The notes below the pieces were generated by a model. It searched no databases. It saw nothing but the letters and a program-made list of their open reading frames with translations, and was not told the origin of the DNA. Shown in pieces: positions 2,089 to 37,433 of a stretch of DNA of 44,016 bases; within the stretch, counting starts at the first letter, position 1; every line of letters starts with the position of its first letter. Made by a program: the position numbers and the translations under genes. This DNA is from a virus. Location: the IMG/VR virus record IMGVR_UViG_3300038393_001495, positions 1-44,016 of that record, one strand, 5' to 3'.

Positions 2089-2122
2089 GGAGGAATCCGC
2101 CAGAGGCCCGGGGGCTGCTCAC
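2089..2122 (-). promoter_or_regulatory. phage-specific promoter-like box PM1
   Basis: Minus strand: GTGAGCAGC-CCCCGGGCCT-CTGGCGGATTCCTCC. It ends 30 nt upstream of ATG 2058 and follows hairpin 2156-2199. Confidence 0.6.
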
Positions 2123-2155
2123 GGATGCGCGCTCGAGTTTTTCGCCGGGTACGCG

Positions 2156-2199
2156 AAAGGCCCCCGTCCCGACCTGTAGGTCTGTGAACGGGGGCCCTT
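2156..2199 (-). terminator. GC-rich hairpin downstream of the DNA polymerase gene
   Basis: Arms aaaggcccccgt / acgggggccctt (one mismatch), immediately after stop 2204. Confidence 0.55.
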
Positions 2200-2203
2200 C
2201 TGC

Positions 2204-4120
2204 TCACGCGGCGAGCGGCACGTCCTCCTCGGGCGGGCATCCGTACGCCGAGCCCCACGAGGGACCGGCGACCTCGCCCGTCGAGGAGATGGGCACGCCC
2301 TTGAAGTCGCGCGTCATCGTCTCGCCGATGAGCCGTGCGACCTCCTCGGCGTCCTCCCGGGGCGCCTGCGCCACGAGTTCGTCGTGGACGGGCAGGAGGA
2401 GGCAGTCGCCGAGGCCCTTGTCGAAGAGGCTCACGATGGCCTGCGCGAGGATGTCGCGCGAGAGCGACTGGACCGCGTAGTTCGTGGCCGCGTAGAGGCG
2501 GTCACGGTCGAGCGGGAGGTGCCGCCCGGTCTCCGTGACGACCTCACGGGCGCCGAATTGGGCGCGCGTCTGGAGGCGCTTCCCGTAGCGCTTGATGCCC
2601 GGGAACGAGCGGTCGTAGGCGGCGATGGCCTCCTTGACCTCCGGGAGCGGGGCGCCGGTCTGACGCGAGAGCGTCGTCGCGCCGCCGCCGTAGACCTTGC
2701 CGAAGCCGACGCCCTTTCCCATCTTGCGCTGGCGCTTCGTGAAGTTCGGCCCGTAGAGCATCGACGCCGTGAAGTCGTGCAGGTCGAGCCCGTTCCGAAT
2801 CGCCCGGATCATGGCGGGCTCGGGGGCCAGGGCGGCGAGGACGCGCATCTCGATCTGGTCGTAGTCCGACGAGATGATGAGGTGGCCCGGGTCCGCCGTG
2901 AGCGCGCGCCGGATGGTCCAGTCCGACGACGGGAGTTGCTGGAGCGGCGGGCGCGAGATGGACATGCGCGCCGTCCGCGCCTGAAGCCCGCCGATGAACG
3001 GGTGGAGCCGCCCGTCCGGGTCCATGAGGTCGAGGAAGGCGTCGGCGTACGCAGTCGCCCACTTCTCCGAGCGCTTCGACCGGAGCACGGCGTCGGCGAG
3101 GAGGTTCGGCTTGCGGGCCTCGATGCGGTTCCAATCGCGGTCGAGGTCCGCAAGGGGCATGAGGACTTCCTTGTCCACCTTCAGGCCCGTTTTGGTCCGC
3201 TCGGTCAGCGTCTCGCCCATCGCGACGAGGGAGGCCGAGACCTGTCCCGTCGAGTTCACGTTCTCGACGCCGTAGCGCCGAGCGACGCCGCGGTAGTGCT
3301 CGGCCTCGGCGTGGAGGCGGTCGCGGAGGCGGCGGGTGTAGTCCTCGTCCACGCGGATTCCGCGGCGCTGCATGACCGCGAGGAGGACCGCGAGGTGGTG
3401 CTCGAACTTCGAGAGGTGCGAGACGCCCGCGCCCTTCACGAGCGGCCCGAGCGCGTCGAAGAGGCGCCGAGCGAGGAGCGGGTCGAGGCCGGAGTAGAGG
3501 GTGTAGAGCGGGTGGTAGATGTCCACGTTCGCGAAGCCGAACGGGATGTGCGGGCGCGTCGGGTGACGGCGCTTGAATGCGGCGATGTCGTCGGCGCTCA
3601 CGGTCTTCTGCCACGCGCGCCAGAGGGCCAGGAACACGTCCTTCAGGCCCTCCGAGGTGTCCGGGGCGGACTCGTCCACGTAGACCGCGGAGAGCGGCTT
3701 CAGGGAGAGGCCCGTGCCGCCCTCGTGCTCGCTCCGCGGGTCGAGGAGGTGGGCCATGATGCGCGTGTCAAAGCATCGCGGGCCGAAGTCCTCGACCTTC
3801 ACGCCGAGGTGGCGGTCCACCACGAGCCAGTCGAAGGGCGCGTTGTGCGCCGTGAACATGCGGGGCTGGAGGAGGGCCTCCCGGGCGATGCCGCCGAAGA
3901 GGTCCGCGCGGAGGTTGAACGCGAGGTCGCGGTTGCCGAATTGGAGCATCCGGAGGCGGTGGTCGGCCTTGAAGATGTCGAGGTCCGTCGTCTCAGTGTC
4001 GAAGCCGAGAACCTTGTCGTCGCGGGCGAGGAACTCCTCGAAGGCGCCGAGGTCGCTCGGGCGCTCCGGGGTCAGGATGCGGCACTCGTCGCCGCCGAGG
4101 GTGTAGGTCTGTTCGATCAT
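2204..4120 (-). CDS. family A DNA polymerase with 3'-5' exonuclease domain (638 aa)
   Basis: FDTETTDL exo motif. DYDQIEMRVLA (motif A), KMGKGVGFGKVYGGG (motif B), PVHDELV (motif C). Confidence 0.9.
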   Translation of the reverse strand: MIEQTYTLGGDECRILTPERPSDLGAFEEFLARDDKVLGFDTETTDLDIFKADHRLRMLQFGNRDLAFNLRADLFGGIAREALLQPRMFTAHNAPFDWLVVDRHLGVKVEDFGPRCFDTRIMAHLLDPRSEHEGGTGLSLKPLSAVYVDESAPDTSEGLKDVFLALWRAWQKTVSADDIAAFKRRHPTRPHIPFGFANVDIYHPLYTLYSGLDPLLARRLFDALGPLVKGAGVSHLSKFEHHLAVLLAVMQRRGIRVDEDYTRRLRDRLHAEAEHYRGVARRYGVENVNSTGQVSASLVAMGETLTERTKTGLKVDKEVLMPLADLDRDWNRIEARKPNLLADAVLRSKRSEKWATAYADAFLDLMDPDGRLHPFIGGLQARTARMSISRPPLQQLPSSDWTIRRALTADPGHLIISSDYDQIEMRVLAALAPEPAMIRAIRNGLDLHDFTASMLYGPNFTKRQRKMGKGVGFGKVYGGGATTLSRQTGAPLPEVKEAIAAYDRSFPGIKRYGKRLQTRAQFGAREVVTETGRHLPLDRDRLYAATNYAVQSLSRDILAQAIVSLFDKGLGDCLLLPVHDELVAQAPREDAEEVARLIGETMTRDFKGVPISSTGEVAGPSWGSAYGCPPEEDVPLAA

Positions 4121-4161
4121 GAGGTGGCCTTCGTTGTCGGTCCGGGATGGGGAGGTACGCC

Positions 4162-4196
4162 GAAGCCCCCGAGCGCGAGATGCGGTCGGGGGCCTC
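4162..4196 (-). terminator. GC-rich hairpin (attenuator-like) between the Zn-ribbon gene and the polymerase gene
   Basis: Arms gaagcccccga / tcgggggcctc with one mismatch. Confidence 0.4.
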
Positions 4197-4210
4197 GGGA
4201 GGTGGGGCGT

Positions 4211-4327
4211 TTACACGCCCGTCGCGCACGTCGGGCAGTCGATGTGCTGGTTGTGCGCGAGGTGGCAGACGCCGCACACGGTCTCGCGCGGGAGGAGTTC
4301 CGGGACGGTCTCGATGTCAGCGAACAC
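4211..4327 (-). CDS. small zinc-ribbon-like protein (38 aa, GTG start)
   Basis: VFADIETVPELLPRETVCGVCHLAHNQHIDCPTCATGV contains CxxC-x9-CxxC. A GAAAGG RBS lies 7 nt upstream of GTG 4327. Below the track length cutoff. Confidence 0.45.
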   Translation of the reverse strand: MFADIETVPELLPRETVCGVCHLAHNQHIDCPTCATGV

Positions 4328-4338
4328 GGGCGGGCCTT

Positions 4339-6798
4339 TCAGAGGATGGCGTCGAGGTCGGCGCCGGTGATGGGGGATGTGACGGAGGAATCCGCCAGAG
4401 GTGCCGCCTCTGCTCGCGGGGCCTCGGGCTCGGCGTCCGCGGCCTCGGCGGCGTCCTTCGCCGTCGCACGGCGCACGCCGTCGAAGACCATGCCCGCGGC
4501 GGCGCGGCGCTTCGTCAGCCCGCGCTCTTCGAGAGCGGCGTTGAACGTGCGCTTCGTCCAGGCGTCCGCGTCGCGGATGCCCTCGTGCTGGCACCACTCC
4601 CGATACGAGAGGTAGAGGTCGGTCGCCGAGACGCCGCGCTCCTCCTCGTCGTGGAGCCACTCGCCCGGGAGGAAGCCGTAGAGCGCATCCGAGGTCTCTC
4701 GGTAGGCGCCGACGGCGTTCTTCACGACCTCCGGGTCACGGAGCCCGCCCTCGTACCACTCGACGGCGCCACGGACCGCCCACGCGAGGATGCCCTCCGC
4801 CTCGGCGAGGAGCGTCGCGCCGAGACGCGGGTCGCGCTCGTGCGGAGCGAAGTAGCGCTCCCACGGAATGAGTTTCACTCGGCGCCAGAGGCCCTCGTCC
4901 TGCCCGCGGAACTGCGGCTTGTAGTTCGAGGCAAGCATGATGAGGAACGTCGGGCGGAACTCGAAGAACTCCTTCCGCATGAAGCGGGCGGCGATGAGGT
5001 CGCGGCCCGTGACGCGCTTCAGCATCGCCTCCGCCATCGGCTTGTTCGCCTCGCCCTCGGATGCCATGACGAGGCGGGCGCCCTTCAGCGCCGCGATGTC
5101 GTTCGGGATGCCGCCCGAGGGCTTCGCCTCGAACGTCGAGAACGGCGTCGTGACGGTCGCCTCGCGGAAGACCTCCGTAAGCGTGTCCGTGAGGACGGAC
5201 TTCCCGTTCGCGCCCTTGCCGACGTGGACCACGAAGCACTGCTCGTCCGTGCGGCCCGTGATGCCGTAGCCGACGAGGCGCCGCATGTACGCCGGAAGCG
5301 CCGGGTACTTGTCGAAGACCTCGCCGAGGAACTTCTCCCAGCGCGGCGCCTTCGCGTCCTTCCGATACACGAGGTCGATGCGCCGCGTCAGGAGGTAGGC
5401 CGGGTCGTGCGGGAGGAGGTCGCCCGTGCGGAGGTCCACGACGCCGTTCGCGCACGCGAGGAGGTCGTGGCGCTGGTCGAACTTGTCGAGCGGGGTCGCC
5501 ACGTCGCGGAGGGCCTTCACCTCGCGAATCGCCGCGTCGATGCCGCGGCTGCTCTGCGAGTAGTTCGCCCAGGCACGCCACGCCTTCGCCGCCGCCTCCT
5601 GTTCCTTCGTTACGGCGCCGACCGCCATCGTCCGGGCGATGGCCGCGGTCATCTCCGCCGCCTCCTGCGCGTAGGCGCGCGAGGCGTCGAGGTCGTCCGG
5701 GCGCCACACGCCGCCGTCGAGCACGAAGAATCCGCTCTCGGGTGCGTAGCGGAGGTCCGAGCCCTGCGAGCGGGCGTAGTCCCGAAGGAAGCGCGCGTTC
5801 CCGAGGTCGGTCAGCGGGTAGGTGGACTGGTCGCGCCCGGAGAGCGCCGCCGAGTAGGAGGACTCGACCGGCGCCTCCATGATGGCGCGCACGATGGCGC
5901 GGCCCGTCGGGTCGCTCTCGCGCCACTTCGAGAGGTCGGAGTCCTCCGGGACGGCGAGGCGCGCGACCGTGACCGAGCGCTCCGTCATGCCCTGCGCGAT
6001 GGCCGCGGAGAACTGCTGGCCCGCCCGGTCGCCGTCGCCGCACGCGATGACCTTCCGGCCCGCCGCGAACGCCGCGAGGGCGTCGAGGATGGTCGGGTTC
6101 GAGGCGTTGCCCGAGCCCGCGATGAAGAACACGTCGTAGCCGAGGGAGACGCCGGTCAGTCCGTCGCCGGGGCCCTCGGTCACGAGCACCTCGCCCCATC
6201 CCGAGGAGCCCGGGAGCGTGCCGTACTTCAGCCACGACCCGCCGCCCTCGGGGCGCTTCGGGCCCTTCCAACGGAGGTCCACGGCGGGGTCGAGGGCCCG
6301 GGCCTGATAGCCGCGCGGGTTGCCCTCCACGTCGAGGAACGGGACGACGAGGCGGGGCGTGTCAGTCTCCGAGAGGCCGAGGCCCAGGCGACGCGCCTCC
6401 TCCGCCGAGATGCCGAAGCGCCGCTCGGCGTAGTCGAGGACGGTCGAGTAGGAGGCGTCCTCCTCGGCGAGCGCGTCGGCCCAGCGGTCGAGGTCGGCGA
6501 CGAGGCCCGCGATGACCTCGGGCGCCGGGGGCGCGTCCGTCGAGGTCGCGCGGCGGGAGGCCGGAACCTTCCCGTCGATGGTCATGCTCGCGAGGTCGCG
6601 GAGGGAGAGGCCCATCTTGTCGAGCACGTCGGTCGTCTTGCATCCCGTCCGGCATCGGACGAGCACACGGTCGCCGTCCTTGCCGACCGCGACGCGGAGC
6701 GAGGGGTCCGAGTCGGAGTGCGCGGGACAGATGGCGAGCCATCCGTCGGGCTGCTCCTCCACGCCGTCGAGGCGGGCGAGGAAGGCGGAGAGGTCCAT
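4339..6798 (-). CDS. bifunctional DNA primase / D5-P4-type helicase (819 aa)
   Basis: DnaG-like zinc finger CPAHSDSDPSLRV. TOPRIM-like VTEGPGDG...CGDGDRAG. Walker A GKGANGKS and Walker B LVMASEGE. Start MDLSAF at 6798, behind an AAAGGA RBS, rather than track start 6984. Confidence 0.85.
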   Translation of the reverse strand: MDLSAFLARLDGVEEQPDGWLAICPAHSDSDPSLRVAVGKDGDRVLVRCRTGCKTTDVLDKMGLSLRDLASMTIDGKVPASRRATSTDAPPAPEVIAGLVADLDRWADALAEEDASYSTVLDYAERRFGISAEEARRLGLGLSETDTPRLVVPFLDVEGNPRGYQARALDPAVDLRWKGPKRPEGGGSWLKYGTLPGSSGWGEVLVTEGPGDGLTGVSLGYDVFFIAGSGNASNPTILDALAAFAAGRKVIACGDGDRAGQQFSAAIAQGMTERSVTVARLAVPEDSDLSKWRESDPTGRAIVRAIMEAPVESSYSAALSGRDQSTYPLTDLGNARFLRDYARSQGSDLRYAPESGFFVLDGGVWRPDDLDASRAYAQEAAEMTAAIARTMAVGAVTKEQEAAAKAWRAWANYSQSSRGIDAAIREVKALRDVATPLDKFDQRHDLLACANGVVDLRTGDLLPHDPAYLLTRRIDLVYRKDAKAPRWEKFLGEVFDKYPALPAYMRRLVGYGITGRTDEQCFVVHVGKGANGKSVLTDTLTEVFREATVTTPFSTFEAKPSGGIPNDIAALKGARLVMASEGEANKPMAEAMLKRVTGRDLIAARFMRKEFFEFRPTFLIMLASNYKPQFRGQDEGLWRRVKLIPWERYFAPHERDPRLGATLLAEAEGILAWAVRGAVEWYEGGLRDPEVVKNAVGAYRETSDALYGFLPGEWLHDEEERGVSATDLYLSYREWCQHEGIRDADAWTKRTFNAALEERGLTKRRAAAGMVFDGVRRATAKDAAEAADAEPEAPRAEAAPLADSSVTSPITGADLDAIL
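4384..4417 (-). promoter_or_regulatory. phage-specific promoter-like box PM2 (embedded in the 3' end of the primase gene)
   Basis: Minus strand: GCGAGCAGA-GGCGGCACCT-CTGGCGGATTCCTCC, 56 nt upstream of GTG 4327. Confidence 0.5.
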
Positions 6799-6830
6799 GC
6801 GGGAGAGTCCTTTCGGTCGGGTGTGACGCG

Positions 6831-6864
6831 AGAGGAATCCGCCAGTCGCGGGGGCGCTGCTCAC
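6831..6864 (-). promoter_or_regulatory. phage-specific promoter-like box PM3
   Basis: Minus strand: GTGAGCAGC-GCCCCCGCGA-CTGGCGGATTCCTCT, 32 nt upstream of ATG 6798 and directly after hairpin 6880-6908. Confidence 0.6.
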
Positions 6865-6879
6865 GCCAGAACGCACGAA

Positions 6880-6908
6880 GCCCCCGGGCTCCGAAGAGGC
6901 CCGGGGGC
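6880..6908 (-). terminator. GC-rich hairpin terminator
   Basis: Perfect 10-bp stem gcccccgggc / gcccgggggc with a 9-nt loop. Confidence 0.6.
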
Positions 6909-6913
6909 GGGGC

Positions 6914-6932
6914 GTGTAAACGCCGTTTACAT
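6914..6932. promoter_or_regulatory. 19-bp palindrome GTGTAAACG-C-CGTTTACAT (two inverted copies of the dispersed 9-mer)
   Basis: Read directly. It contains the TAA stop (6927-6929) of the upstream gene. Confidence 0.6.
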
Positions 6933-7247
6933 GAGGCGCCGGAGGACGGCGGCGAACTCGCGGAGCGGGAGGACGACGTACCACTCGCCGACGCCCTTCC
7001 CGGGGCGCCGGACGACCGCGGCCCCGAAGGGCTCGCCCGCCCGGACCTTCTGCCGGAGGGCGCCCTCGACGCCCGCGCGCATCGCGGCGAGGAGGTCGCG
7101 GAAGTCCTTCACCTGAAGGACGAAGGGCGAGACGCCGTGGATGTCGCCCGCGTCCTCGAAGCCCGCGTTGTACGGCTTGAACGCCGGGACGCCCTCGGCT
7201 TCGAGGAAGGCGACGACCTTCGTCTCGGCCTCCGTGCCGCCGCTCAT
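6927..7247 (-). CDS. PD-(D/E)XK-type nuclease, possible Holliday-junction resolvase (106 aa)
   Basis: AFLEAEG...EDAGDIHGVSPFVLQVK resembles the E...D...(E/Q)xK nuclease core. ATG 7247 forms an ATGA overlap with the upstream gene. Confidence 0.45.
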   Translation of the reverse strand: MSGGTEAETKVVAFLEAEGVPAFKPYNAGFEDAGDIHGVSPFVLQVKDFRDLLAAMRAGVEGALRQKVRAGEPFGAAVVRRPGKGVGEWYVVLPLREFAAVLRRLM

Positions 7248-7573
7248 CGTCGCCCGGAGCGGACGGTCGTGGAGCGGTAGGTCGTGGTCTTCGAGCGGGT
7301 GCCCGAGAACCATCCGCCCGTCTTCTGCTTGACGACGGTCTTCTCGCGGACCGTCACGGGGCGGGTGCGCTGGACGCGCGTCGGGCGGAGCGGGGTCGCC
7401 GGGTAGTAGTGACCCTGCCAGTAGCCCGAGTGGACCGGAAGGCACTGCATCCCGCGGAGGTGATACCCGGGCGGGCACGAGTCGGCGTAGTAGGTCTCGT
7501 AGCGCGGCGAGCACGCGCCGAGGGCCAGGGCGACGACCACGGCGCCGAGAGCGGCGATGGACTTGCGGATCAT
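7244..7573 (-). CDS. putative secreted lipoprotein (109 aa)
   Basis: N-terminal MIRKSIAALGAVVVALALGAC looks like a signal peptide with a lipobox-like LGAC. Confidence 0.6.
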   Translation of the reverse strand: MIRKSIAALGAVVVALALGACSPRYETYYADSCPPGYHLRGMQCLPVHSGYWQGHYYPATPLRPTRVQRTRPVTVREKTVVKQKTGGWFSGTRSKTTTYRSTTVRSGRR

Positions 7574-7592
7574 GGGGAGCCTTTCGTACGAG

Positions 7593-7628
7593 GAAGGCCC
7601 GCCCCCGGAGTAGTGGAGGCGGGCCTTC
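7593..7628 (-). terminator. GC-rich hairpin terminator/attenuator
   Basis: Perfect 11-bp stem gaaggcccgcc / ggcgggccttc. Confidence 0.55.
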
Positions 7629-7631
7629 GGG

Positions 7632-7784
7632 TCAGTCGCGGGGCGGGTAGTGGAAGTGCGCGGCGCGTGCCGCGGTGTTCTCGGCGATGAGGCGCTCGTA
7701 GGCGTCCACGGCCTCCCGCTCCCGGCGACGTGCGCCGAAGAGAGGGAGGCCGAGGAGGAGGAGCGTGCGGACGAGTCCCGTCAC
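7632..7784 (-). CDS. small membrane protein (50 aa, GTG start)
   Basis: VTGLVRTLLLLGLPLFG... has a hydrophobic N-terminus. GTGA overlap with stop 7781 of the upstream gene. Confidence 0.45.
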   Translation of the reverse strand: MTGLVRTLLLLGLPLFGARRREREAVDAYERLIAENTAARAAHFHYPPRD

Positions 7785-8440
7785 TCGGCGGCGCCGAGGA
7801 TGGAGACGACCGGCTTCGTGAAGACGTTGCCGTTCTTCATCTCGACGCGCTCCAGCGCGAGGGTCGCCTTCGCGGGGCCCTCGACCTTGCCGAGGTCGCC
7901 GATGGCCTTGCCGACGACGGTCGCGAGGCTCCACGCGCCGGACTCGAACTTCCAGAGGCCGAGGTCGGGGTCGCTCGCGAGGCGGAAGGTGATGGAGACG
8001 CGGGGCTCGCAGACGTGGCCCTGCTCCTCGTGCTCGGCGCGGTTGCGGAAGCCGCCCATCTCGCAGACGTACGGCTTGCCGTCGGTCTCGAAGACCGAGT
8101 TGTCGCAGACGACGATCTTCTTCTGACCGCGGGGCCAGATGAGCATGCGTGCGTCGATGGCGGCGGCGCCGTCGAGGATGACCTCGACCTCGCCGGAGGT
8201 CGTGAAGACCTCGATGTTCTGCTCGGTCTTGGTCTCCCACGACTGCGGACCCGCGGAGGCGCCGAGGGCCTTCGCGATGGAGTCGGCGGCGTCCGGGTCG
8301 CCGGTCGTGACGCGCCACTCGGTCAGGCTCGCGGGCGTGCCGTTCACCTGATAGCCCGAGCGGAAGTTGCCCACGATGTCGTCGGCGCCGAAGCGCTTGC
8401 CCGAGTCGGTCTGGAGGGAGGGGTCGAAGAGGTCGATCAT
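7781..8440 (-). CDS. hypothetical replication-module protein (219 aa)
   Basis: ATG 8440 (MIDLFDPS) lies behind box PM4. Track ORF 7781..8935 extends upstream through a non-coding region. No motif recognised. Confidence 0.65.
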   Translation of the reverse strand: MIDLFDPSLQTDSGKRFGADDIVGNFRSGYQVNGTPASLTEWRVTTGDPDAADSIAKALGASAGPQSWETKTEQNIEVFTTSGEVEVILDGAAAIDARMLIWPRGQKKIVVCDNSVFETDGKPYVCEMGGFRNRAEHEEQGHVCEPRVSITFRLASDPDLGLWKFESGAWSLATVVGKAIGDLGKVEGPAKATLALERVEMKNGNVFTKPVVSILGAAE

Positions 8441-8489
8441 GCGGAGTGTTCTCACTTTCAAGAGGCGGTAATGCCCGCGGTGGGGCAAG

Positions 8490-8523
8490 AGAGGAATCCG
8501 CCAGTCGTGCTCGCGCTGCTCGG
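8490..8523 (-). promoter_or_regulatory. phage-specific promoter-like box PM4
   Basis: Minus strand: CCGAGCAGC-GCGAGCACGA-CTGGCGGATTCCTCT, 49 nt upstream of ATG 8440 and after hairpin 8540-8570. Confidence 0.55.
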
Positions 8524-8539
8524 GGCCAGGAACGCCGAA

Positions 8540-8570
8540 GGGCCCCCACCTCGCGAGGAGGTGAGGGCCC
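8540..8570 (-). terminator. GC-rich hairpin terminator
   Basis: Arms gggcccccacctc / gaggtgagggccc (one mismatch), right after stop 8578. Confidence 0.5.
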
Positions 8571-8577
8571 TTGTGGG

Positions 8578-8976
8578 TCAGGCGGAAGCGAACGTGCCGG
8601 GTGGCCTCGTGAGGGCCGGACCCGGGAACGAGACGCGGTTCTCCAGCCCCTCGCGCCGGAACGCGAGCCCGCCGAGAATGTCGCCGATCTTCGAGGAGCG
8701 ACGGGCGCCCATGTGGGGCAGGAGCGCCCGCATGATGTCCGCCGCGCGGTCGCCGGAGACCTCCGCGTGGAAGGTCGTCTTGTGGACCTTCGAGATGGTC
8801 ATGCGGATGCGCGAGCCCATGAGGGTTGCCGCGCGACCCACCACGTCCCGGTCGGTCATGCCGACGCGGATGCGCGGGTACTTCCCGCGGTGGAGGTCGA
8901 ACGTGCCCTCGCCTTCGAGGAGGCCCGCGAGCCACACGAGGTCGGACTCGCCGATGACGAACGGACCGTGCTTCAT
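8578..8976 (-). CDS. free-standing single-motif LAGLIDADG homing endonuclease (132 aa)
   Basis: DLVWLAGLLEGEGTFDL matches the LAGLIDADG motif context. ATG 8976 forms an ATGA overlap with the upstream gene. Confidence 0.7.
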   Translation of the reverse strand: MKHGPFVIGESDLVWLAGLLEGEGTFDLHRGKYPRIRVGMTDRDVVGRAATLMGSRIRMTISKVHKTTFHAEVSGDRAADIMRALLPHMGARRSSKIGDILGGLAFRREGLENRVSFPGPALTRPPGTFASA

Positions 8977-9170
8977 CGGGCCACTCCGTCCATCGAGCGG
9001 TTCCAGCGGACCGTCCGGTAGCCGTCCGGATGCGCCGGGTCGTCCTCGAAGCGAGCGAACGAGGCGACGTTCGTCATCGTGTCGAGGAAGGCGTCGTCCC
9101 ACGGCTCGGCGTTCGGGAGGTCGCGGAGGCGGGCCTCCTCCTCCGGCGTGAGGTTGCGGTAGCGCGTCAT
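8973..9170 (-). CDS. hypothetical protein (65 aa)
   Basis: ATGA overlaps at both ends (9167-9170, 8973-8976). It is the tail of track ORF 8973..10184. Confidence 0.5.
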   Translation of the reverse strand: MTRYRNLTPEEEARLRDLPNAEPWDDAFLDTMTNVASFARFEDDPAHPDGYRTVRWNRSMDGVAR

Positions 9171-10087
9171 GACGCCTTCGCCTTCGCGCGCGCCTTCGGC
9201 TGGTTGATGGGCCCTCTCTGCTGCCCGGGCTTGAACTCGCCGCCCGCCGCGACGGGCTTCCCGATGACGCGCTTCTTCACCTCGGAGTCCCAATCGAGGA
9301 CTTCGCGGAGGGCGAGGAAGTAGTCGAAGACATCGACCTCGTGGCCCGGGACCACCACGTCGCCGGTCGGCTCGTGGACGACGGGCTCGGCGAGGGTGAC
9401 CGTGCCGACCTCGACCGGGACGAGTTTCCAGCCCTCGGGGCGGACGAGGAGGACGGCGCCGCCCTCGGCCTTCGGGAGCGGGACGCGGGAGCCGTCCGGG
9501 CGGACGATGTGCGTCGCACGCGAGTACGCACAGAGTTGGAGCGCGACCTCCTCGTGGACGCCGGACCGGGTGGTCTTCCAGTCCATGAAGAGGAGTTTCC
9601 CCTTCAGGTCGCCCACGTCGCCGGTCAGGCGGGCCAGGGCGTCGAACGAGCCCGCGTAGCCGAACTCGTCGGACCAAACGGTCTCTTCGAGGAAGACGAA
9701 CTCGGGCTTCGCGATGTCGAGGAACTCGCGGAAGTGCTCGATGTACGGCTTCAGGTTCGGCGTGATGCGCGGGTTCTCGCCCTTCGCGATCTGCTCGAAG
9801 GCGTCGTGCGCCTCGGAGCCGACATCGGCGGAGTTCGACGTGAAGCGGCGCGGGGCGCCCTTCAGGAGTTCGACGGCTGCCTTCGGGTCGCGCATCGCGA
9901 TACCGACGACATCGCCCATGTTCTCGACGGCGTACTCGGCGACCATCTTCGCCGCCCAGAACGTGAGGAACGGCTTCGGGAGCATGTTCAGGACGGAGGT
10001 CACGCCGGGGTTCTTCCGGCCCGTGTCGGGGTTCACGTAGAACCGTGAGCCACCTCGGGAGATGGTGGAGACCTTCGGAGTGGTCAT
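9167..10087 (-). CDS. PD-(D/E)XK exonuclease (Cas4/RecB-like, 306 aa)
   Basis: GYAGSFDAL ... LFMDWKTT ... QLCAY fits the D / (D/E)xK / QxxxY nuclease motif set. Confidence 0.65.
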   Translation of the reverse strand: MTTPKVSTISRGGSRFYVNPDTGRKNPGVTSVLNMLPKPFLTFWAAKMVAEYAVENMGDVVGIAMRDPKAAVELLKGAPRRFTSNSADVGSEAHDAFEQIAKGENPRITPNLKPYIEHFREFLDIAKPEFVFLEETVWSDEFGYAGSFDALARLTGDVGDLKGKLLFMDWKTTRSGVHEEVALQLCAYSRATHIVRPDGSRVPLPKAEGGAVLLVRPEGWKLVPVEVGTVTLAEPVVHEPTGDVVVPGHEVDVFDYFLALREVLDWDSEVKKRVIGKPVAAGGEFKPGQQRGPINQPKARAKAKAS

Positions 10088-10117
10088 TTGGGGGTTCCTT
10101 TCCTGTCAGGGGACAGG

Positions 10118-10151
10118 AGAGGAATCCGCCAGTAGAGCCAGGGCGGCTCAG
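10118..10151 (-). promoter_or_regulatory. phage-specific promoter-like box PM5 (5' box overlaps stop codon 10148-10150)
   Basis: Minus strand: CTGAGCCGC-CCTGGCTCTA-CTGGCGGATTCCTCT, 30 nt upstream of ATG 10087. Confidence 0.55.
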
Positions 10152-10723
10152 TCCTCGACGTTCTCCGCGGTCTCGCGGAGCCACTGTTGAAGCGTGCGCG
10201 TGGAGGCGGCGACGCGGGCGCGGTCCGCCGAGGTGAGGGTGTCGAGGGAGCGCTTGTCGAGGTGCGAGAGGCGCTGCGCGAGCGTGTAGAGCGAGGCCAC
10301 GGTGTCCGAGGCGAGGCGCTCGGCCTCGCGCTTCGTCTTCGGGTTCTGCCGTACGAAGTGACGTTGCTTCGGCGTCTCGGCCATGAGACCGGCGTCCGTG
10401 AGTTCCTCGGCGTTTACACGCTCACGTAATGCATTCCCGACGTGATAGCGAATAGACGCCTTTATCGAGGATTGACCATCGGCAGGAAGGCCGGCCTTTG
10501 AGTAAATGTCCGCGACTATTTGACGATAAGCGAATGAATTGCCTGCCCAATCGGGCATTCCTTCGGGCGTCGTATAGCGCGCGCGGAGTTCTACGAGAAT
10601 GTCCGCGACTCGCCGGAACTCGGGCGAGCGATAGCGCGGCTCCAATCGGAGCGCGGCGCGGAGGTACTTAGCCGCGAGGTTGCGGAGTTCGTCCTCGCCG
10701 AGGAGTTCGAGGTCAGTAGCCAT
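10148..10723 (-). CDS. hypothetical protein in a lower-GC island (191 aa)
   Basis: ATG 10723 (MATDLELL). Region about 10420-10740 is visibly AT-richer. In-frame TTA codon at 10427-10429. No motif recognised. Confidence 0.6.
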   Translation of the reverse strand: MATDLELLGEDELRNLAAKYLRAALRLEPRYRSPEFRRVADILVELRARYTTPEGMPDWAGNSFAYRQIVADIYSKAGLPADGQSSIKASIRYHVGNALRERVNAEELTDAGLMAETPKQRHFVRQNPKTKREAERLASDTVASLYTLAQRLSHLDKRSLDTLTSADRARVAASTRTLQQWLRETAENVED

Positions 10724-10730
10724 AAGCGGG

Positions 10731-10760
10731 AGCATAGCGAAGTGTGAGCCCGCGTGCCTA
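10731..10760 (-). promoter_or_regulatory. weak candidate host-type promoter (TAGGCA-N18-TATGCT) giving a leaderless mRNA
   Basis: The -10-like TATGCT ends 7 nt before ATG 10723. Sits between terminator 10777-10808 and the gene. Confidence 0.3.
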
Positions 10761-10776
10761 CGCTCCGGTAACGCCG

Positions 10777-10808
10777 AAGGCCCCCGCCTCATAAGAGACG
10801 GGGGCCTT
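10777..10808 (-). terminator. GC-rich hairpin terminator after the RNR gene
   Basis: Perfect 10-bp stem aaggcccccg / cgggggcctt. The plus-strand side carries a TTTT run. Confidence 0.6.
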
Positions 10809-10841: not shown

Positions 10842-12974
10842 CTAGCGGACGGGACACGCGCCAGAGGCGCAATCCTCGTCCACGCCGTCCGCCACGAGGC
10901 GCGCGGCTGCGGCCTCGTAATCCGCCGCCGTGATGCGCTCGTAGGGCGCCTGCGGGCGCGAGCCGTCGAGCATGACGGTCGTACCCTTCAGCCCCGGGAG
11001 CGCCGCCGTGAGCGTCTCCACGAGCGACGCGACCGCCTCGGCGGACGGCGGCGGAGGCGTCAGCGCGCCGGAGGCCAGGGCCTCGTCCTGATGCGGCTCG
11101 GCGGGGATGTTGACCGTGAAGGACACGGCGTTGTCCGCCCACGCGCGCTGATAGAGGGCCTGCATCCGGAGGAGGTCCGCGGGCGAGATGTCGCTCTGGC
11201 CCTCCACGAGCGAGCCCGGGAGCCCGAGGGCCTCGACCTGCTCCACGAGGATGTCCTTCGTCGGGTAGGTGACGACGACCGTGTTCCCGCTCGGGTCGTA
11301 CTGATCGGGCTCGACGTGGAAGCCGTCGAACTCGGCCCGCTCCACGATGTCGCGCTCCCGCTCCGAGGTCATCGAGAACCGCACGCGCCGGAGGAAGTGC
11401 GTCGAGTAGATCGGGTGGATGCCCTCGGCGACTCCAGGCATCTTCGCGATGGTGCCCGTCGGGGCGACCGTCGTCACCTTCACGGGCTCCGGCATGCGGA
11501 GGCGGAAGGCGTAGCGGCGGGCCTCCTCGCGGACCACGAGGTAGAGGTCTTCGAGGAGGGCCTCGAAGCCCGGGACGTACGGCGCCGCCGAGTAGCGGAT
11601 GCCCTGCTTCACGAGGAAGCCGTGGACGCCGAGATGCCCGACGCCGATGCGACGGTTCGAGGCGAGGCGCGCGGCCTGCTTCGGGTCGTTTACATCGCCG
11701 TACGTCGCCCGCATGAGGAACCGCGTCATGAGGACGTGCGCCTCCCGGAGGTCCGCCGTGACGGCGAGCCCGCCCGAGGCGAAGGCGTCGAGGTTGACGT
11801 GGCCGAGGTTGCAGTTCTCCCACGCTTCGAGAGCAATCTCGCCACACGGGTTCGTCGCGATGACCTCGCCGACCTCGCCCTCGTTCGAGAGGGAGGAGTT
11901 CCAGAGACCGGGCTCGCCGTTCGTGAGCATCCGCTCGGCGACCTTCTGGAGGATGAGCCACGCCGCCGAGCCCCCGCGGGCCATGTCCGCCGTGAAGTCG
12001 TCGTCCACCTCGACGGAGATGTTCGTCGTCCAGTGCTGCGACGGGTCTTCCTTGCAGGCCAGGAAGTCGAGGACGAACGGGTCGCGCCAGTGAACGATGG
12101 ACATGCGGGCCGAGCGCCGGACGCCGCCCGCCACGACCGCCTCGCCGATGGCGTGGTCAATCGCCATCGCGTCGAGGGGCGTCATCTGCCGAGCCCCGGC
12201 GTAGGTGACATCGAGGCGGAAGCCGTTCTCGCGGTTGCCGTTCATGACCTCGGCGACCTTGTGCAGGAGGCGAGCGAACGGGAGCGGGCCCGACGCCGTG
12301 CCGCCGAACGTGCGGAGCGGGGCGCCCTTGCGCCGGACGCGCGTCATGTCGAAGACGCGGTTCTCGTGCTCGACCGGGGCGTCCGTCATGAAGGTGTCCA
12401 CGAGGTCCACGAGCGCCGCGGCGATGCCCTCGCGCGAGTCCTCGACCGGGAAGGCGCCCGTCCACTCGTGCGAGTAGTCCGTCGAGATGAGGCCCTCGGC
12501 GACCATCGCCTCGTAGTCCGGGTGCGACGGGTCGCACACGACATGCACCTTCAGCGAGCGGCGCGGGGCGCCGTACTTCGCGAGGTGCCGCGAGGAGTAG
12601 TTCGCCCCGACGCCGCCGCCCTCGGCGAGGCGCTGGAAGGTGAACTCGAAGTGCTCCGAGAGCGACTCGCCCCATCCGGCGACGTGGCAGTTGAAGAGGT
12701 ATTGACGCCCCTTCACGCCGGACGCCCAGAGGTGGCGCCCGCCCGGGAGGAGGCGGAAGTCGAGCATGTAGTCGAAGAGGCGCGCGTACTCCTCGTGGAC
12801 CTCGCGGGACCACGAGGAGCGCGGCCCGTGGACGAGGGAGAGGTTGCCCTCGGCGACGCGGGCGACGGTCTCGGGCCACGTCTCCAGCGAGCCGTCCGGC
12901 TTCGGGCGCGAGTAGGTGCGGGTGTAAACGGTCTCGCCGGTCGGGCCGAACGGGACGGAGGGAGCGGAGGTCAT
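10842..12974 (-). CDS. nrdJ: class II (adenosylcobalamin-dependent) ribonucleotide reductase (710 aa)
   Basis: Active-site-like NPCGEIALEAWENCNLGHVNL and a C-terminal Cys pair CASGACPVR. ATG 12974 chosen over TTG 12995. Confidence 0.85.
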   Translation of the reverse strand: MTSAPSVPFGPTGETVYTRTYSRPKPDGSLETWPETVARVAEGNLSLVHGPRSSWSREVHEEYARLFDYMLDFRLLPGGRHLWASGVKGRQYLFNCHVAGWGESLSEHFEFTFQRLAEGGGVGANYSSRHLAKYGAPRRSLKVHVVCDPSHPDYEAMVAEGLISTDYSHEWTGAFPVEDSREGIAAALVDLVDTFMTDAPVEHENRVFDMTRVRRKGAPLRTFGGTASGPLPFARLLHKVAEVMNGNRENGFRLDVTYAGARQMTPLDAMAIDHAIGEAVVAGGVRRSARMSIVHWRDPFVLDFLACKEDPSQHWTTNISVEVDDDFTADMARGGSAAWLILQKVAERMLTNGEPGLWNSSLSNEGEVGEVIATNPCGEIALEAWENCNLGHVNLDAFASGGLAVTADLREAHVLMTRFLMRATYGDVNDPKQAARLASNRRIGVGHLGVHGFLVKQGIRYSAAPYVPGFEALLEDLYLVVREEARRYAFRLRMPEPVKVTTVAPTGTIAKMPGVAEGIHPIYSTHFLRRVRFSMTSERERDIVERAEFDGFHVEPDQYDPSGNTVVVTYPTKDILVEQVEALGLPGSLVEGQSDISPADLLRMQALYQRAWADNAVSFTVNIPAEPHQDEALASGALTPPPPSAEAVASLVETLTAALPGLKGTTVMLDGSRPQAPYERITAADYEAAAARLVADGVDEDCASGACPVR

Positions 12975-13518: not shown

Positions 13519-13519
13519 G

Positions 13520-14104
13520 TCAGACCTCCGCCCCGACCGCGAACGCCCCCGGGAGGAGGAGGCGCCGGGTCACGAAGAGGCCCGCGTCCAGGCGGAGGTC
13601 TTCGAGCGTGCCCGTGTTGAGGACCACCACGTCGGCGTCCGCCGAGGAGGTCGAGGTCTCCGAGACGTGCGTGTCGCCGTCGTCCGGGAGCCCGGGGCGC
13701 TCGATGTAGACGAGCGTCCCGCCCGCGCGCCGGATGGCCGCGACCTCGTTCGGGAAGCGAACGTCCGTCACGACGACGTGCGCCGACGGGGCCGAGAGGA
13801 TGTTCCGCTCGGCGACCCGAATCCATGCCTGCGGGTCCACGACCTCGCGGATGATGACGCCGTAGTCCTGAAGGGCCTTGCGGACGGCGGGGTACTCCTT
13901 CGCGACCTCCCAGCCGTGCGAGGCGACGATGCTCGACAGGCGCTCGGCGCCGGTCATCGTCGGCATGAGCGGGTCGAAGCGGAGGAGCGCTTCCTTCAGC
14001 GGGTCCGCGAAGGCGATGCGGTGGAAGCCGTGGTCCTCGATGAGGGCCGAGGCGAACGAGTCCTTGCCGGAGCGCTTGCGCCCCATGAGTCCGACGAGCG
14101 CCAT
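13520..14104 (-). CDS. deoxynucleoside monophosphate kinase (194 aa)
   Basis: P-loop GLMGRKRSGKDS at the N-terminus. Overall pattern is typical of phage dNMP kinases. Confidence 0.7.
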   Translation of the reverse strand: MALVGLMGRKRSGKDSFASALIEDHGFHRIAFADPLKEALLRFDPLMPTMTGAERLSSIVASHGWEVAKEYPAVRKALQDYGVIIREVVDPQAWIRVAERNILSAPSAHVVVTDVRFPNEVAAIRRAGGTLVYIERPGLPDDGDTHVSETSTSSADADVVVLNTGTLEDLRLDAGLFVTRRLLLPGAFAVGAEV

Positions 14105-14355: not shown

Positions 14356-14388
14356 GAGGAATCCGCCAGAGTCGCGAGGCTGCTCACG
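14356..14388 (-). promoter_or_regulatory. phage-specific promoter-like box PM6
   Basis: Minus strand: GTGAGCAGC-CTCGCGACT-CTGGCGGATTCCTCT (9-nt spacer), 37 nt upstream of GTG 14318. Confidence 0.6.
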
Positions 14389-14400
14389 GGAAAGCGAAAG

Positions 14401-14426
14401 GGCCCCTCCCGGATGGGAGAGGCCCT
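14401..14426 (-). terminator. GC-rich hairpin terminator
   Basis: Arms gggcccctccc / gggagaggccc, one mismatch. Confidence 0.5.
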
Positions 14427-35045: not shown

Positions 35046-35239
35046 GGAGGGTTCCTTCATCGGCGAGCCGCGAGTCGGCCCGCGGGTACGACAAAGCCCG
35101 CCCCTGCTCGACGCCTCGACCGCGGAGAGGAGGACGCGGGAGACGGAGCGGGGGCGGGCTGAACCTCCCTGCAAGCCCACGAGGGGCTGCCGCCGATACA
35201 TCCGTCCGGGAGAGAGACGGGGCGCGTTTACACGATGGG

Positions 35240-35309
35240 CAGATGTGGGAGGAGTCGAACCTCCGGGCGTCGGTTTTGGAGACCGGGCCATCACCACTGA
35301 CTCACACCT
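35240..35309 (-). tRNA. tRNA-Trp(CCA)-like gene with a shortened D arm
   Basis: Minus strand: acceptor AGGTGTG/CACATCT, anticodon arm CCGGT-CTCCAAA-ACCGA (anticodon at 35277-35279), T arm GGAGG-TTCGACT-CCTCC. The D region is about 3 nt shorter than canonical. Confidence 0.5.
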
Positions 35310-35312
35310 ACG

Positions 35313-35365
35313 GAGGGGCCCTCGTCCTCCGCGAGTCGATGCGCGAGGAACGGGCAGGGCCCCTC
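35313..35365 (-). other. long structured leader hairpin between box PM7 and the tRNA-like gene
   Basis: Perfect outer 10-bp stem gaggggccct / agggcccctc with inner imperfect pairing. Confidence 0.5.
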
Positions 35366-35371: not shown

Positions 35372-35405
35372 TGAGGAATCCGCCACGGTTACGCCACGTG
35401 CTCAC
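35372..35405 (-). promoter_or_regulatory. phage-specific promoter-like box PM7 (candidate late-operon promoter; 5' box overlaps stop 35402-35404)
   Basis: Minus strand: GTGAGCACG-TGGCGTAACC-GTGGCGGATTCCTCA. No further box is seen between here and the lysis genes at about 15 kb. Confidence 0.55.
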
Positions 35406-35638
35406 GGCACGCGACGACAGGCGGAACAGACGCGCCGGAGACCATCGGCCTCCCGCGAGTCGAGGTGGAACTCGCTCGTGGGCTTCGCGACGCCGCACGA
35501 GGCGCACGTCTTCCGCACGCCCCGAGTCCAGGCCCGCCTACGGGCCAGGGCGGCGCCGAGGAGCGCCTCCACGCCCTCCGGGTCGCCGTCAGGATGACGG
35601 GTCGCCAGAGAGGCGCGGAGGCGGTCCTCCAGGCTCAC
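35402..35638 (-). CDS. zinc-ribbon protein (78 aa, GTG start)
   Basis: KTCASCGVAKPTSEFHLDSREADGLRRVCSACRR gives CxxC-x24-CxxC. GTGA overlap with stop 35635 of the repeat protein. Confidence 0.55.
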   Translation of the reverse strand: MSLEDRLRASLATRHPDGDPEGVEALLGAALARRRAWTRGVRKTCASCGVAKPTSEFHLDSREADGLRRVCSACRRVP

Positions 35639-37350
35639 GAGCGGGTCTTCAGCCCGAGGAGGAACTCGGCGAGCGCCGCCACGTCCGAGCCGAGGATGCC
35701 ACGGAAGCCCGACTTCGCGAGGATGTCCGACGCCTGCGCCGAGACCTCCAGCCGAAGGGCGTAGTCCTCGCGCGCCGTCTCGTCGCGGACCTCGAACGTC
35801 GGCGTGGCGCCCTTCACCTCGGGCGCCGGGGCGAGGGACGACGGCTTGAAGTAGTCGTAGTCGCCGTCCTCGAACTCCACGTGGTAGTCGCCGTCGGAGT
35901 CGAGCCCGCCCTTGACCTGCCCAGCGCGACCCTCGTAGTCCGTGAGGCCGCACTCGGTCGGGCCGGTCACGAGCACCTTGTCGCCGTCCTCGAAGACGAC
36001 CTCGGCCTCCACGACCTCGGGCTCCGGGGCCGGGGCCTCGATCTTCACGAAGGACTGCGGCGCGAGGCGGTAGCCCGCCGTGACCACGAGGCGCCCGAGG
36101 TGGTCCTCGCCGACGTGGCGGACCGTGTGCTCCTCGCCCACGATGGAGTCGCCGAGGAGCCCCGGCTTCCCGCTCGGGAGGATGTTCGCCGCGATGCGGA
36201 CGCGGTCGCCGACCTCGAACGTCGGGACGTACGCGGCGAGTTCCTCGCGCTCGAAGCCCCACGACTGGAGCGAGTAGTCGCCGTCGATCTTCACGGCGTA
36301 GTCGCCGCGGCCCTGCCCGTAGCCGCGGAGAGCGGTCACGGTGCCGGTCGCGCCCGGACCCCGGACCTCCGCCGCGAAGGGCGAGGAGAGGACCGTCACG
36401 CGGTCGCCGACGGCGAAGGACGGGGCGGTCTCGACCGTCTCGACCTCGGGCGTCTCCATCGAGAGGAGCGTCGCCCACGGGCCGACGGGGGCCTTCGACA
36501 GGCTCGACGCCGGGAAGTAGGACCACTGGCCCTCGCCCGGGAACTCCACCACGAAGTCGCCCTCGCGGTCCGGGCCCTCCGTGACCGTGCCGACGAGGCC
36601 CGCGTACTTGTCCGAGCCCGTGAAGTCGTCGCCGACGAGCACGCGGTCGCCCTTCGAGGGCACGTAGGCCGGGGCGGGCTCGACGGTCAGGAGGGCGAGT
36701 TCGGCCTCGCGGTAGCCCCAGGCACGCGAGCCGTTCCCGTCGAGGACGACGGCGTAGTCCGGGCGGGAGATGCCGGAGATGTCGTGGCGGTCGGTCGGCA
36801 TCGGGACGACCGTCCCGACGTTGCCCGCCTTGCGGTAGACGCCGACGTACGTCGAGGAGACGATGCTCACGCGGTCGCCCGGGACGAACTTCGGCGCCGG
36901 GACGAGGCACTCGGCGGCGACGGTCCAGTTGCCGATGCCGACGTTCCCGGGGATGGTCCATCCGTTCGTGACGGTCACCACGTCGCCGACCTTCGGGCGG
37001 GTCGAGTCCGCGTGGTAGTAGTCCGCGTGGTCGCCCATCCCGCCGACGTAGCGGTGGAAGACCGTGCCCGCCACCACGGCGCGGTCGCCCGGGGCGAAGG
37101 TGTGGACCTCGGGGTCCGGGACGTGGACCTTCAGGTCCACGAGGCGGACGGTCTGGCGCTTGCCGCCCTCGGTCGCCTTGAACTCCGCGGCGTCCGCGTG
37201 GCGGGCGTAGGAGGCGCTCGGCACGTCGAGGGAGATGCACTCCACGACCTCGCCGAGGTCGTAGTAGTGGCGGAGGCCGCTCGCGCTTCCGTCCGCGGTC
37301 ACGACGTAGCGCTCGCCGACGACGGGCAGGGCGGGGGAGGTGCTGCTCAT
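35635..37350 (-). CDS. 571-aa protein built of six or more tandem ~65-75-aa beta-barrel-like (KOW/SH3/Tudor-like) repeats
   Basis: Recurrent F-x-x-GD(R/K)V anchors: FAPGDRAVV, FVPGDRVSIV, SKGDRVLVG, FAVGDRVTVL, FEVGDRVRIA, FEDGDKVLVT. Each is followed by G..G.V and GD(F/Y).V.F segments. Own box PM8. Confidence 0.7.
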   Translation of the reverse strand: MSSTSPALPVVGERYVVTADGSASGLRHYYDLGEVVECISLDVPSASYARHADAAEFKATEGGKRQTVRLVDLKVHVPDPEVHTFAPGDRAVVAGTVFHRYVGGMGDHADYYHADSTRPKVGDVVTVTNGWTIPGNVGIGNWTVAAECLVPAPKFVPGDRVSIVSSTYVGVYRKAGNVGTVVPMPTDRHDISGISRPDYAVVLDGNGSRAWGYREAELALLTVEPAPAYVPSKGDRVLVGDDFTGSDKYAGLVGTVTEGPDREGDFVVEFPGEGQWSYFPASSLSKAPVGPWATLLSMETPEVETVETAPSFAVGDRVTVLSSPFAAEVRGPGATGTVTALRGYGQGRGDYAVKIDGDYSLQSWGFEREELAAYVPTFEVGDRVRIAANILPSGKPGLLGDSIVGEEHTVRHVGEDHLGRLVVTAGYRLAPQSFVKIEAPAPEPEVVEAEVVFEDGDKVLVTGPTECGLTDYEGRAGQVKGGLDSDGDYHVEFEDGDYDYFKPSSLAPAPEVKGATPTFEVRDETAREDYALRLEVSAQASDILAKSGFRGILGSDVAALAEFLLGLKTRS

Positions 37351-37400
37351 GGGTGTGTCCTCTCGGTCCGTCCCACGGCGCCTCTCGCCGTGGTGACAGG

Positions 37401-37433
37401 GGAGGAATCCGCCAGTCGCCGGATGCTGCTCAC
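37401..37433 (-). promoter_or_regulatory. phage-specific promoter-like box PM8
   Basis: Minus strand: GTGAGCAGC-ATCCGGCGA-CTGGCGGATTCCTCC (9-nt spacer), 50 nt upstream of ATG 37350 and after hairpin 37445-37475. Confidence 0.6.

Follow-up and report, generated by a model that had tools for sequence, protein, structure and literature searches.

The actinophage genome analysed here, IMG/VR record IMGVR_UViG_3300038393_001495 (positions 1 to 44,016; this whole stretch of 44,016 nucleotides (nt), 71% G+C, is called the window), carries eight copies of a short two-block DNA box, each standing ahead of a gene or a run of genes. The question raised by this arrangement is what the boxes do and which factor reads them. 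We believe that the eight boxes are probably phage-specific promoters, which would be read by the host core RNA polymerase together with a sigma-70-family protein of 269 amino acids (aa) encoded by the phage gene 1442..633.

The Eight Box Copies

The downstream block of the box, TGGCGGATTCCTC, occurs in eight exact copies, all on the minus strand (Table 1; single copies are named below by their lowest coordinate). When up to two mismatches were allowed, nine matches were found against 1.44 expected, and none of 100 shuffles reached nine; the ninth match lies on the plus strand with two mismatches and is not a member of the box set. After the eight copies were aligned with their flanks, 17 columns were invariant, namely GAGC and the 13-mer, and the stretch between them was unconserved. 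The upstream block was exactly GTGAGCAGC in four of the eight copies and GTGAGCACG, CTGAGCCGC, CCGAGCAGC and GCGAGCAGA in the remaining four. The spacing from GAGC to GGC was 15 nt in six copies and 14 nt in the other two (14356 and 37402). Some further sites match the 10-nt core with one mismatch and lack GAGC; they are located within genes and were regarded as chance occurrences. When viral contigs were scanned for exact matches to the full box, none were found.

All eight copies are oriented as the genes are, the coding strand of the window being the minus strand throughout, as judged by third-position GC. The end of the box lies 31 to 62 nt before the next gene, the largest distance being that to a tRNA gene. 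Strong GC hairpins stand directly before five of the copies, with z-scores between −2.4 and −5.1. These hairpins were judged by folding, because a terminator scan that requires a T-run caught only one of the five. The late operon of approximately 21 kb has a single copy at its head and none inside. Asymmetric, co-oriented sites that follow terminators and lie 31–62 nt before starts, including that of a tRNA, are placed as promoters would be.

The first-pass annotation, made from the letters of the window, had described eight co-oriented copies of an invariant 13-mer with a GAGC-containing box upstream, located 30–62 nt before the next start, five of them directly after GC hairpins, one heading a tRNA and the packaging, structural and lysis block, and one within the 3' end of the primase gene (copy 4385, inside 6798..4339). 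All of this was borne out, and the tRNA was identified as tRNA-Trp. Two copies had also been said to overlap the stop codon of the upstream gene. This is correct for copy 10119, in which TGAGCC contains the stop codon (TGA) that ends the open reading frame (ORF) 10792..10148, whereas the second overlap apparently concerned a spurious ORF with low third-position GC.

The Sigma-Like Protein of the Phage

Single-sequence matches of the 269-aa protein were weak (Pfam Sigma70_r2, E = 3.6e-4; PHROG 351 'RNA polymerase sigma factor'). A profile of 17 homologues aligned at full length to regions 2–4 of SigA (E = 1.2e-5), and when this profile was compared with PDB sequences, 22 of 22 matches were sigma factors. 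The AlphaFold2 model had a predicted local distance difference test score (pLDDT) of 78. Its best 50 PDB matches in Foldseek were all sigma factors (sigmaS, sigma32, SigA and SigB) with a probability of 1.0 each, and 41 of them had E <= 0.001. The C-terminal helix LSRPKTQRVRTGAL shows the region 4.2 pattern. Comparison of the protein family with that of phiC31 gp12, which is annotated as 'RNA polymerase sigma factor', gave 96% and E = 3.5e-9 in hhalign, with a distinctive ADGD motif in both; pairwise BLAST between the two proteins was not significant, and the relation is visible only by profiles.

Homologues are widespread in cultured phages. Through tblastn, 122 phages of Arthrobacter, Microbacterium and Curtobacterium were found at approximately 35% identity, nearly all with the product annotated as 'DNA binding protein'. 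Single-protein scans gave five loci in viral contigs and only an irrelevant weak match in genome contigs. The literature search on homologues found only one preprint (10.1101/2025.05.26.655371), in which the sigma-like fold of the homologue Lizalica gp43 is noted and promoters are not reported; the search on these promoters found nothing.

The same preprint (10.1101/2025.05.26.655371) lists Lizalica gp43 among the Cluster AZ immunity-repressor candidates. This would suit a reading in which the boxes are operators, at which a repressor or roadblock acts, be it the sigma-like protein or some other DNA-binding protein of the phage, and the co-variation of protein and DNA described below shows recognition and not its outcome. 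We consider such a role quite improbable. The sites are strictly co-oriented and asymmetric, as said above, and follow terminators ahead of starts that include a tRNA; all three domains of a sigma, core-binding regions included, are present in the protein, which matches the sigma of holoenzyme structures; and a separate family of palindromic elements in the window suits operators better.

The long and highly conserved box is also reminiscent of T7-type promoters, which would require a phage single-subunit RNA polymerase. No phage RNA polymerase gene was found among the annotated ORFs of the window. The ORFs of more than 500 aa are all assigned (integrase, terminase, portal-size, tape measure, structural, ribonucleotide reductase, primase and PolA), except for a 571-aa protein, which has no family assignment, only sub-threshold SH3-like matches and no polymerase signal. 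With this gene content, we regard a T7-like polymerase as the reader of the boxes as hardly conceivable.

Co-Variation of Box and Sigma in Related Phages

Every phage that bears a sigma homologue has a two-block box before the exonuclease, recombination directionality factor (RDF), primase and DUF7169 genes and before the late operon, as well as in the 3' end of the primase gene and after the integrase gene. A box at the same position as copy 4385 was present in L002, L004, L005, L006, L008, L009, L015, L016, Moss, Yang and Honk. The cognate boxes of Yang, Moss, Honk and Percival were identified in this analysis. In 13 related phages the upstream TG(A/G)GCA and the spacing were kept, and the downstream block differed by lineage; conservation of the box among relatives holds for both blocks in position and for the upstream one in sequence. 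The upstream block TGAGCAGC was joined to the downstream block CTGGCGGATTCCTC in the window and L002, to CTGGCCCATTCCT in L004 and L005, to CTGGCCCTCTCCTC in L006, L008 and L016, and to CTGGCCGACTCCTC in the Curtobacterium phage Moss. The upstream and downstream blocks were TGAGCAG and TGGCCGTCTCCCC in Honk (Microbacterium), TGAGCA and TGGCTCCCTCT in L015, TGAGCAA and GGGGCAACCTTCTC in Yang (Arthrobacter), and TGGGCAGC and GGCGCACTCCT in Percival (Microbacterium), respectively.

The sigma proteins differ along with the boxes. Between the sigmas of GGAT-box phages (window and L002) and those of CCAT-box phages (L005 and L004), there were 28 fixed differences, all in residues 14–123, with a peak at residues 91–111, which align with SigA region 2.4, and none in residues 124–269. 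The domain-4 helix [ST]R[PQ]xVQRxR was kept in all sigmas compared, as was TGAGCA in the boxes. Across the wider set, the helix equivalent to region 2.4 was highly variable, like the downstream block, and the four divergent sigmas from phages with a CCCTCTCC (or GCTCTCC) box share Y-x-A-[DN] in this helix. A conserved domain 4 with a conserved TGAGCA, and a variable helix with a variable downstream block, are what is expected if domain 4 reads the upstream block and domain 2 the downstream block.

The phages Honk and Percival have the same host strain, M. foliorum NRRL B-24224, and their boxes differ in both blocks (TGAGCA and TGGGCA upstream, respectively), which speaks against a specificity determined by a factor of the host. 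This bears on the reading that the boxes are promoters fired by the host holoenzyme with its principal or an alternative sigma, perhaps with the aid of a small activator from the phage, while the sigma-like protein does something else. Such a reading would fit the upstream TGAGCA box common to phages of different host genera, the location of the phiC31 gp12 gene itself behind such a box, and the absence of the canonical melting residues from the sigma-like protein. We nevertheless think it unlikely, because Honk and Percival differ on one host strain, changes in the downstream block go together with changes in sigma domain 2, and the box does not resemble the host-type promoters of the same genome; a simple scan of positions 1–16000 for E. 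coli-type promoters (sigma-70 consensus) found none.

Spacing, Predicted Start Site and Leader Hairpins

With position 1 taken as the T of TGAGCA, 79 sites from 13 phages with a sigma homologue were compared. The GAGC–GGC gap was 15 nt in 62 of these sites and 14 nt in 8. At unconstrained positions of the 62 sites, position 6 was A in 61, position 19 was C in 50 and position 20 was T in 46. Position 37 was a purine in 59 of the 62, with a pyrimidine before it.

Two registers fit the canonical −35/−10 spacing, that is, a spacer of 16–18 nt. In the first, GAGCAG (positions 2–7) is followed by a 17-nt spacer and a hexamer at 25–30, with a start at the purine 37. In the second, TGAGCA (1–6) is followed by a 16-nt spacer with TG at 20–21 as in an extended −10, a hexamer at 23–28 and a start at approximately 35. 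A sigma-54 promoter (−24/−12; TGGCAC-N5-TTGC) was considered and rejected: CTGGC matches, but there is no GC at the required distance, and the encoded factor is of the sigma-70 family.

Conserved hairpins follow directly after the box in two leaders. In the exonuclease leader (window 10118–10088, minus strand, and L002, L004, L005, L015, L017, L011 and L010), the 3' arm of the hairpin enters the Shine-Dalgarno (SD) sequence. Compensatory changes were found in 7 of its 13 pairs among eight phages, with arms such as CCTGTC/GACAGG, CGTGTC/GACACG, ACTGTC/GACAGT, CATGTC/GACATG and CCATGC/GCATGG, and the informative pairs lie downstream of the box. This hairpin may serve translational control or act as a 5' stabiliser. 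The second hairpin lies in the late leader (Table 1). Hairpins conserved right after the box fit transcripts that begin 1–5 nt past the 13-mer, the exact nucleotide not being fixed by them.

An RNA-level signal in read-through transcripts has also to be weighed here, in the form of a processing site or an anti-Shine-Dalgarno element (TCCTC with a downstream GAGGA). The 3' end of the box is pyrimidine-rich and complementary to the downstream ribosome-binding sites, and RNAalifold draws the helix of the exonuclease leader into the box. We judge this explanation very improbable. One copy precedes a tRNA, which has no ribosome-binding site, and five copies stand just after terminator hairpins. The outer pairs of the helix are explained by the separate constraints on box and SD, and only the inner pairs covary. 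Two blocks at a fixed spacing with an unconserved spacer lack a rationale in RNA structure, and in the Rfam scan the tRNA alone matched, the box having no Rfam match.

The late-operon copy (35373) carries a distinct downstream signature, CATGTAGAGAG. The corresponding sequence is TAATGTAG in Yang and CATATAGGTAG in phiC31. The region concerned, downstream of the late-operon copy, lies at 35372–35313 in the window, 19879–19950 in L002, 20430–20497 in L005, approximately 42380 in L011 and approximately 40590 in L001 (phiC31). The late signature and its hairpin might be involved in late timing, as a terminator that needs antitermination, or in stabilising the long late transcript.

Proposed Transcription Programme and Points against It

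Under the promoter reading with the phage sigma, we propose that transcription proceeds in two tiers. The host holoenzyme would fire the host-type promoter before the sigma gene, where an upstream palindrome suggests repressor control, and probably also five TTGCGy-N18-TACACT promoters of small early genes. The phage sigma would then redirect the polymerase to the eight boxes, which would drive the genes for deoxynucleoside monophosphate (dNMP) kinase, ribonucleotide reductase, exonuclease, RDF, primase, PolA and the 571-aa protein, as well as the late operon from tRNA-Trp. The GC hairpins would insulate the units in a terminator-then-promoter punctuation. Domain 4 of the sigma is predicted to read the upstream TGAGCA, and domain 2, perhaps with region 3.0, the downstream CTGGC-NNNN-TyCTC. 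Transcription would start 1–5 nt past the invariant 13-mer, and 5' ends are expected within approximately 10 nt downstream of GGATTCCTC.

A second, phage-directed tier of transcription, with the product of 633..1442 as its candidate factor, was already suggested in the first-pass annotation, and it gains support from the sigma fold, the geometry, the co-variation, the phiC31 layout and the lack of a phage RNA polymerase gene. The start sites, the timing and the sigma dependence of this tier are predictions, as is the label 'middle' for the replication units.

Several points weigh against this model. The first concerns the protein. In known sigmas, aromatic residues of region 2.3/2.4 take part in DNA melting. 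Residues ~85–105 of the phage protein (RVATALNRELAEA), which align to SigA YATWWIRQAITRA (region 2.3/2.4; YATWWIRQ), contain no aromatic residue at all, and it is therefore not certain that the protein works as a true sigma. The listing of the homologue Lizalica gp43 among immunity-repressor candidates, mentioned above, belongs here as well. In phiC31, the gp12 gene stands behind an early-type box, and the sigma is thus not the sole route to its own expression there.

The second group of points concerns the box. Its downstream block is G+C-rich, and neither register gives both A(−11) and T(−7). Position 28 was T in 62 of 62 sites and position 26 was A in 33 of 62, in a 79-site collection that was anchored on lineage cores, by which the counts at positions 2–5 and 21–30 are partly circular. 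An invariant block of 13 nt is unusually long for a sigma promoter, and a second factor could take part in its recognition. The covariation in the exonuclease leader reaches 2–3 nt upstream of purine 37, which makes the exact start uncertain. Finally, the co-variation among close relatives could have come from a swap of the N-terminal half, that is, from mosaicism rather than selection; mosaic exchange leaves the convergence of the distant sigmas unexplained.

Proposed Control of the Sigma Gene and Host-Type Promoters

No box copy was found in the upstream region of the sigma gene. Instead, this region carries the palindrome GTGAGTA-N6-TACTCAC (1684..1665, minus strand), which is unique in the window and kept in three relatives. 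The two half-sites of this palindrome are the same as in the phiC31 CIR operator (TACTCAC|GTGAGTA), with their order everted. Downstream of the palindrome there are TTGCAC (1657..1652), an 18-nt spacer and TACTCT (1633..1628), and three relatives retain TTGCaC-17/18-TAnnnT before the sigma gene, with variation in the inner −10 bases. The sigma gene thus probably has a host-type promoter under operator control. A scan with E. coli criteria gave no match at this promoter candidate.

A separate family of host-type promoters in the same genome, which the first-pass annotation had also claimed, was found in five copies of TTGCGyNCCGTGCCACGGNGCGTTTACACTC on the minus strand, at 43195, 42327, 41609, 37856 and 14798 (coordinates of the G of GTTTACA). 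They look like host-type promoters with a −35 TTGCGC, an 18-nt spacer and a −10 TACACT, and a possible operator, the palindrome CCGTGcCACGG, lies within the spacer. In four of the copies the distance to the following small early gene is 45–58 nt; the copy at 14798 is only approximately 15 nt from its gene.

The small early genes share the ribosome-binding context GGCCAGAGGAGGCC(C/A) just before ATG (43154–43140, 42791–42777, 42285–42271 and 41578–41564, minus strand), in which GGCC...GGCC flanks the SD sequence as a small inverted repeat. GTTTACA occurs 14 times and TGTAAAC 10 times on the minus strand, with fewer than one expected in a genome of 71% GC (for example at 30800, 22656, 21100, 18266, 16011, 12929, 32258, 26375, 11694 and 1825). 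These copies are often inside coding regions, mostly as GCGTTTACAC or TGTAAACGC. One copy of the family follows the tRNA in three phages, and the Arthrobacter phage Yang (L011) has CGTTTACACG nine times. A perfect palindrome, TGTAAACGGCGTTTACA, lies at 6931–6915, just before the terminator and box of the primase gene. The GTTTACA/TGTAAAC repeat may serve as a stoperator-like site for a repressor or as a DNA signal of some other kind.

Comparison with phiC31 and Other Phage Systems

The early and late promoters of the Streptomyces phage phiC31 were reportedly described in 1993 and 1996, and its terminators are said, in work of 1995, to lack U tails. We compared the phiC31 genome with the window. 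The phiC31 order of exonuclease gp1, RDF gp3, primase gp9a, polymerase gp11, gp12, integrase, tRNA-Thr, HNH endonuclease and terminase matches the order in the window. The conserved box of phiC31 precedes gp2, gp3, gp9a, gp11, gp12, gp13, gp25 and tRNA-Thr, just as the box of the window precedes early genes and the tRNA with the late operon, and both phages have the terminator-then-promoter layout. The box of the window, cTGGCGGATTCCTC, and that of phiC31, GGTTGCCGACTCCCTTAC, match directly at approximately 8 of 14 positions. The downstream block of the Curtobacterium phage Moss and the phiC31 box ccGGGTTGCCGACtCCCTTAc have the 9-mer GCCGACTCC in common (9/9).

There are also differences between the two phages. 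At the distance seen in the window, an upstream TGAGCA box is lacking in phiC31, whose gp12 has 396 aa compared with 269 aa in the window. The box stands before gp12 itself in phiC31, whereas the sigma gene of the window has a host-type promoter candidate. The phiC31 CIR operator CCTACTCACGTGAGTAGG (16 copies) was not found in the window, which has one related palindrome, before the sigma gene only, and carries the GCGTTTACAC / TGTAAACGC repeat family instead. Two CIRs also precede gp12 in phiC31.

In known phage sigma cascades, such as those of the Bacillus phage SPO1 (gp28, gp33/34) and of T4 (gp55), a phage sigma replaces the host sigma and reads middle or late promoters. Unlike these sigmas, the single sigma of the window appears to act for replication genes and late operon alike. 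Its promoter is G+C-rich with a long invariant block on the −10 side, and its relation to the SPO1 and T4 sigmas is at the family level only. The sigma-like 'DNA binding protein' of Arthrobacter Cluster AZ, Microbacterium EB/EH and Curtobacterium phages (e.g., Lizalica gp43) is of the same family and has the same synteny.

The layout itself will not surprise a specialist, to whom the boxes would be a phage-sigma promoter set of the phiC31 type. We tentatively propose, as a possibility that we hold to be slightly short of even, that these proteins form an unrecognised clade of actinophage sigmas, with the ADGD motif and more than 120 cultured members including phiC31 gp12, which read long G+C-rich promoters through a domain 2 without melting aromatics, and in which the helix and a 4-bp promoter stretch have co-diversified into orthogonal pairs. 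To our knowledge, it has been an unanswered question since 1993 which factor acts at the phiC31 early promoters; the clade, if real, would supply the answer and would point to a non-standard −10 recognition or opening. The co-variation ties phiC31-type promoters to gp12-like sigmas and is the first concrete, testable link of this kind known to us. For an uncultured phage, the model gives a regulatory map that would run from host-type early promoters via the phage sigma to eight box promoters, and the system extends to more than 120 cultured phages of Arthrobacter, Microbacterium and Curtobacterium. The lineage-specific pairs of box and sigma are candidate orthogonal expression parts for high-GC actinobacteria and may aid phage annotation.

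Genome Context

Megablast of the window against phages gave only short matches of approximately 75% identity over PolA and primase, and no close cultured relative was found by this search. Together with the integrase, 571-aa, tRNA and sigma-like genes of Table 1, the minus strand carries the late block of HNH endonuclease, small and large terminase, portal, major capsid, tape measure, tail and lysis genes; a metabolism and replication set of dNMP kinase, class II ribonucleotide reductase, exonuclease, Gp3-like RDF, primase/helicase, DNA polymerase I and DUF7169 genes; and a gene for a DUF7239 protein annotated along with the sigma-like gene. In metagenomic relatives, the sigma and DUF7239 genes run via small early genes straight into the integrase gene. 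Because the gene order of the relatives continues in this way, the window is probably a complete, circularly permuted genome, whose ends at 1 and 44016 would be arbitrary assembly artefacts and not genome termini.

Table 1. Boxes, hairpins and genes of the window discussed in the text (distance, from the end of the box to the next gene; z, folding z-score of the hairpin).
Feature	Coordinates	Strand	Distance (nt)	Remarks
Sigma-70-family protein gene, 269 aa (domains 2, 3, 4)	633..1442	-		By profile and fold; proposed specificity factor for the boxes
Sigma-gene control region	1628..1684	-		Palindrome, then host-type promoter candidate
Box copy 8	2090..2122	-	31	Heads DUF7169 gene (2058..1723); hairpin ~2200..2153, z −5.1
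Box copy 7	4385..4417	-	57	Inside primase 3' end; heads small ORF and DNA polymerase I gene (4120..2204)
Box copy 6	6832..6864	-	33	Heads primase/helicase gene (6798..4339); hairpin 6908..6880, z −2.8
Box copy 5	8491..8523	-	50	Heads Gp3-like RDF gene (8440..7781); hairpin 8572..8538, z −4.1
Box copy 4	10119..10151	-	31	Heads exonuclease gene (10087..9167)
Box copy 3	14356..14388	-	37	Heads 70-aa gene, dNMP kinase (14104..13520) and ribonucleotide reductase (12974..10842) genes; terminator-like hairpin 14426..14399, z −2.4
tRNA-Trp(CCA)	35236..35310	-		ARAGORN and Rfam; first gene of the late unit
Late leader hairpin	35313..35365	-		Between late-operon box and tRNA; two compensatory pairs among three phages
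Box copy 2, late-operon copy	35373..35405	-	62 (tRNA)	Heads tRNA-Trp, HNH endonuclease, small/large terminase, portal, capsid, tail and lysis genes
571-aa protein gene	37350..35635	-		Predicted to be box-driven; between integrase region and late operon
Box copy 1 (GTGAGCAGC-N-TGGCGGATTCCTC)	37402..37433	-	51	Heads 571-aa gene (37350..35635); hairpin 37475..37445 directly upstream, z −3.6
Large serine integrase gene	39655..38009	-		By annotation

At the place where the window has the 571-aa protein, the relatives carry proteins of 450–501 aa.

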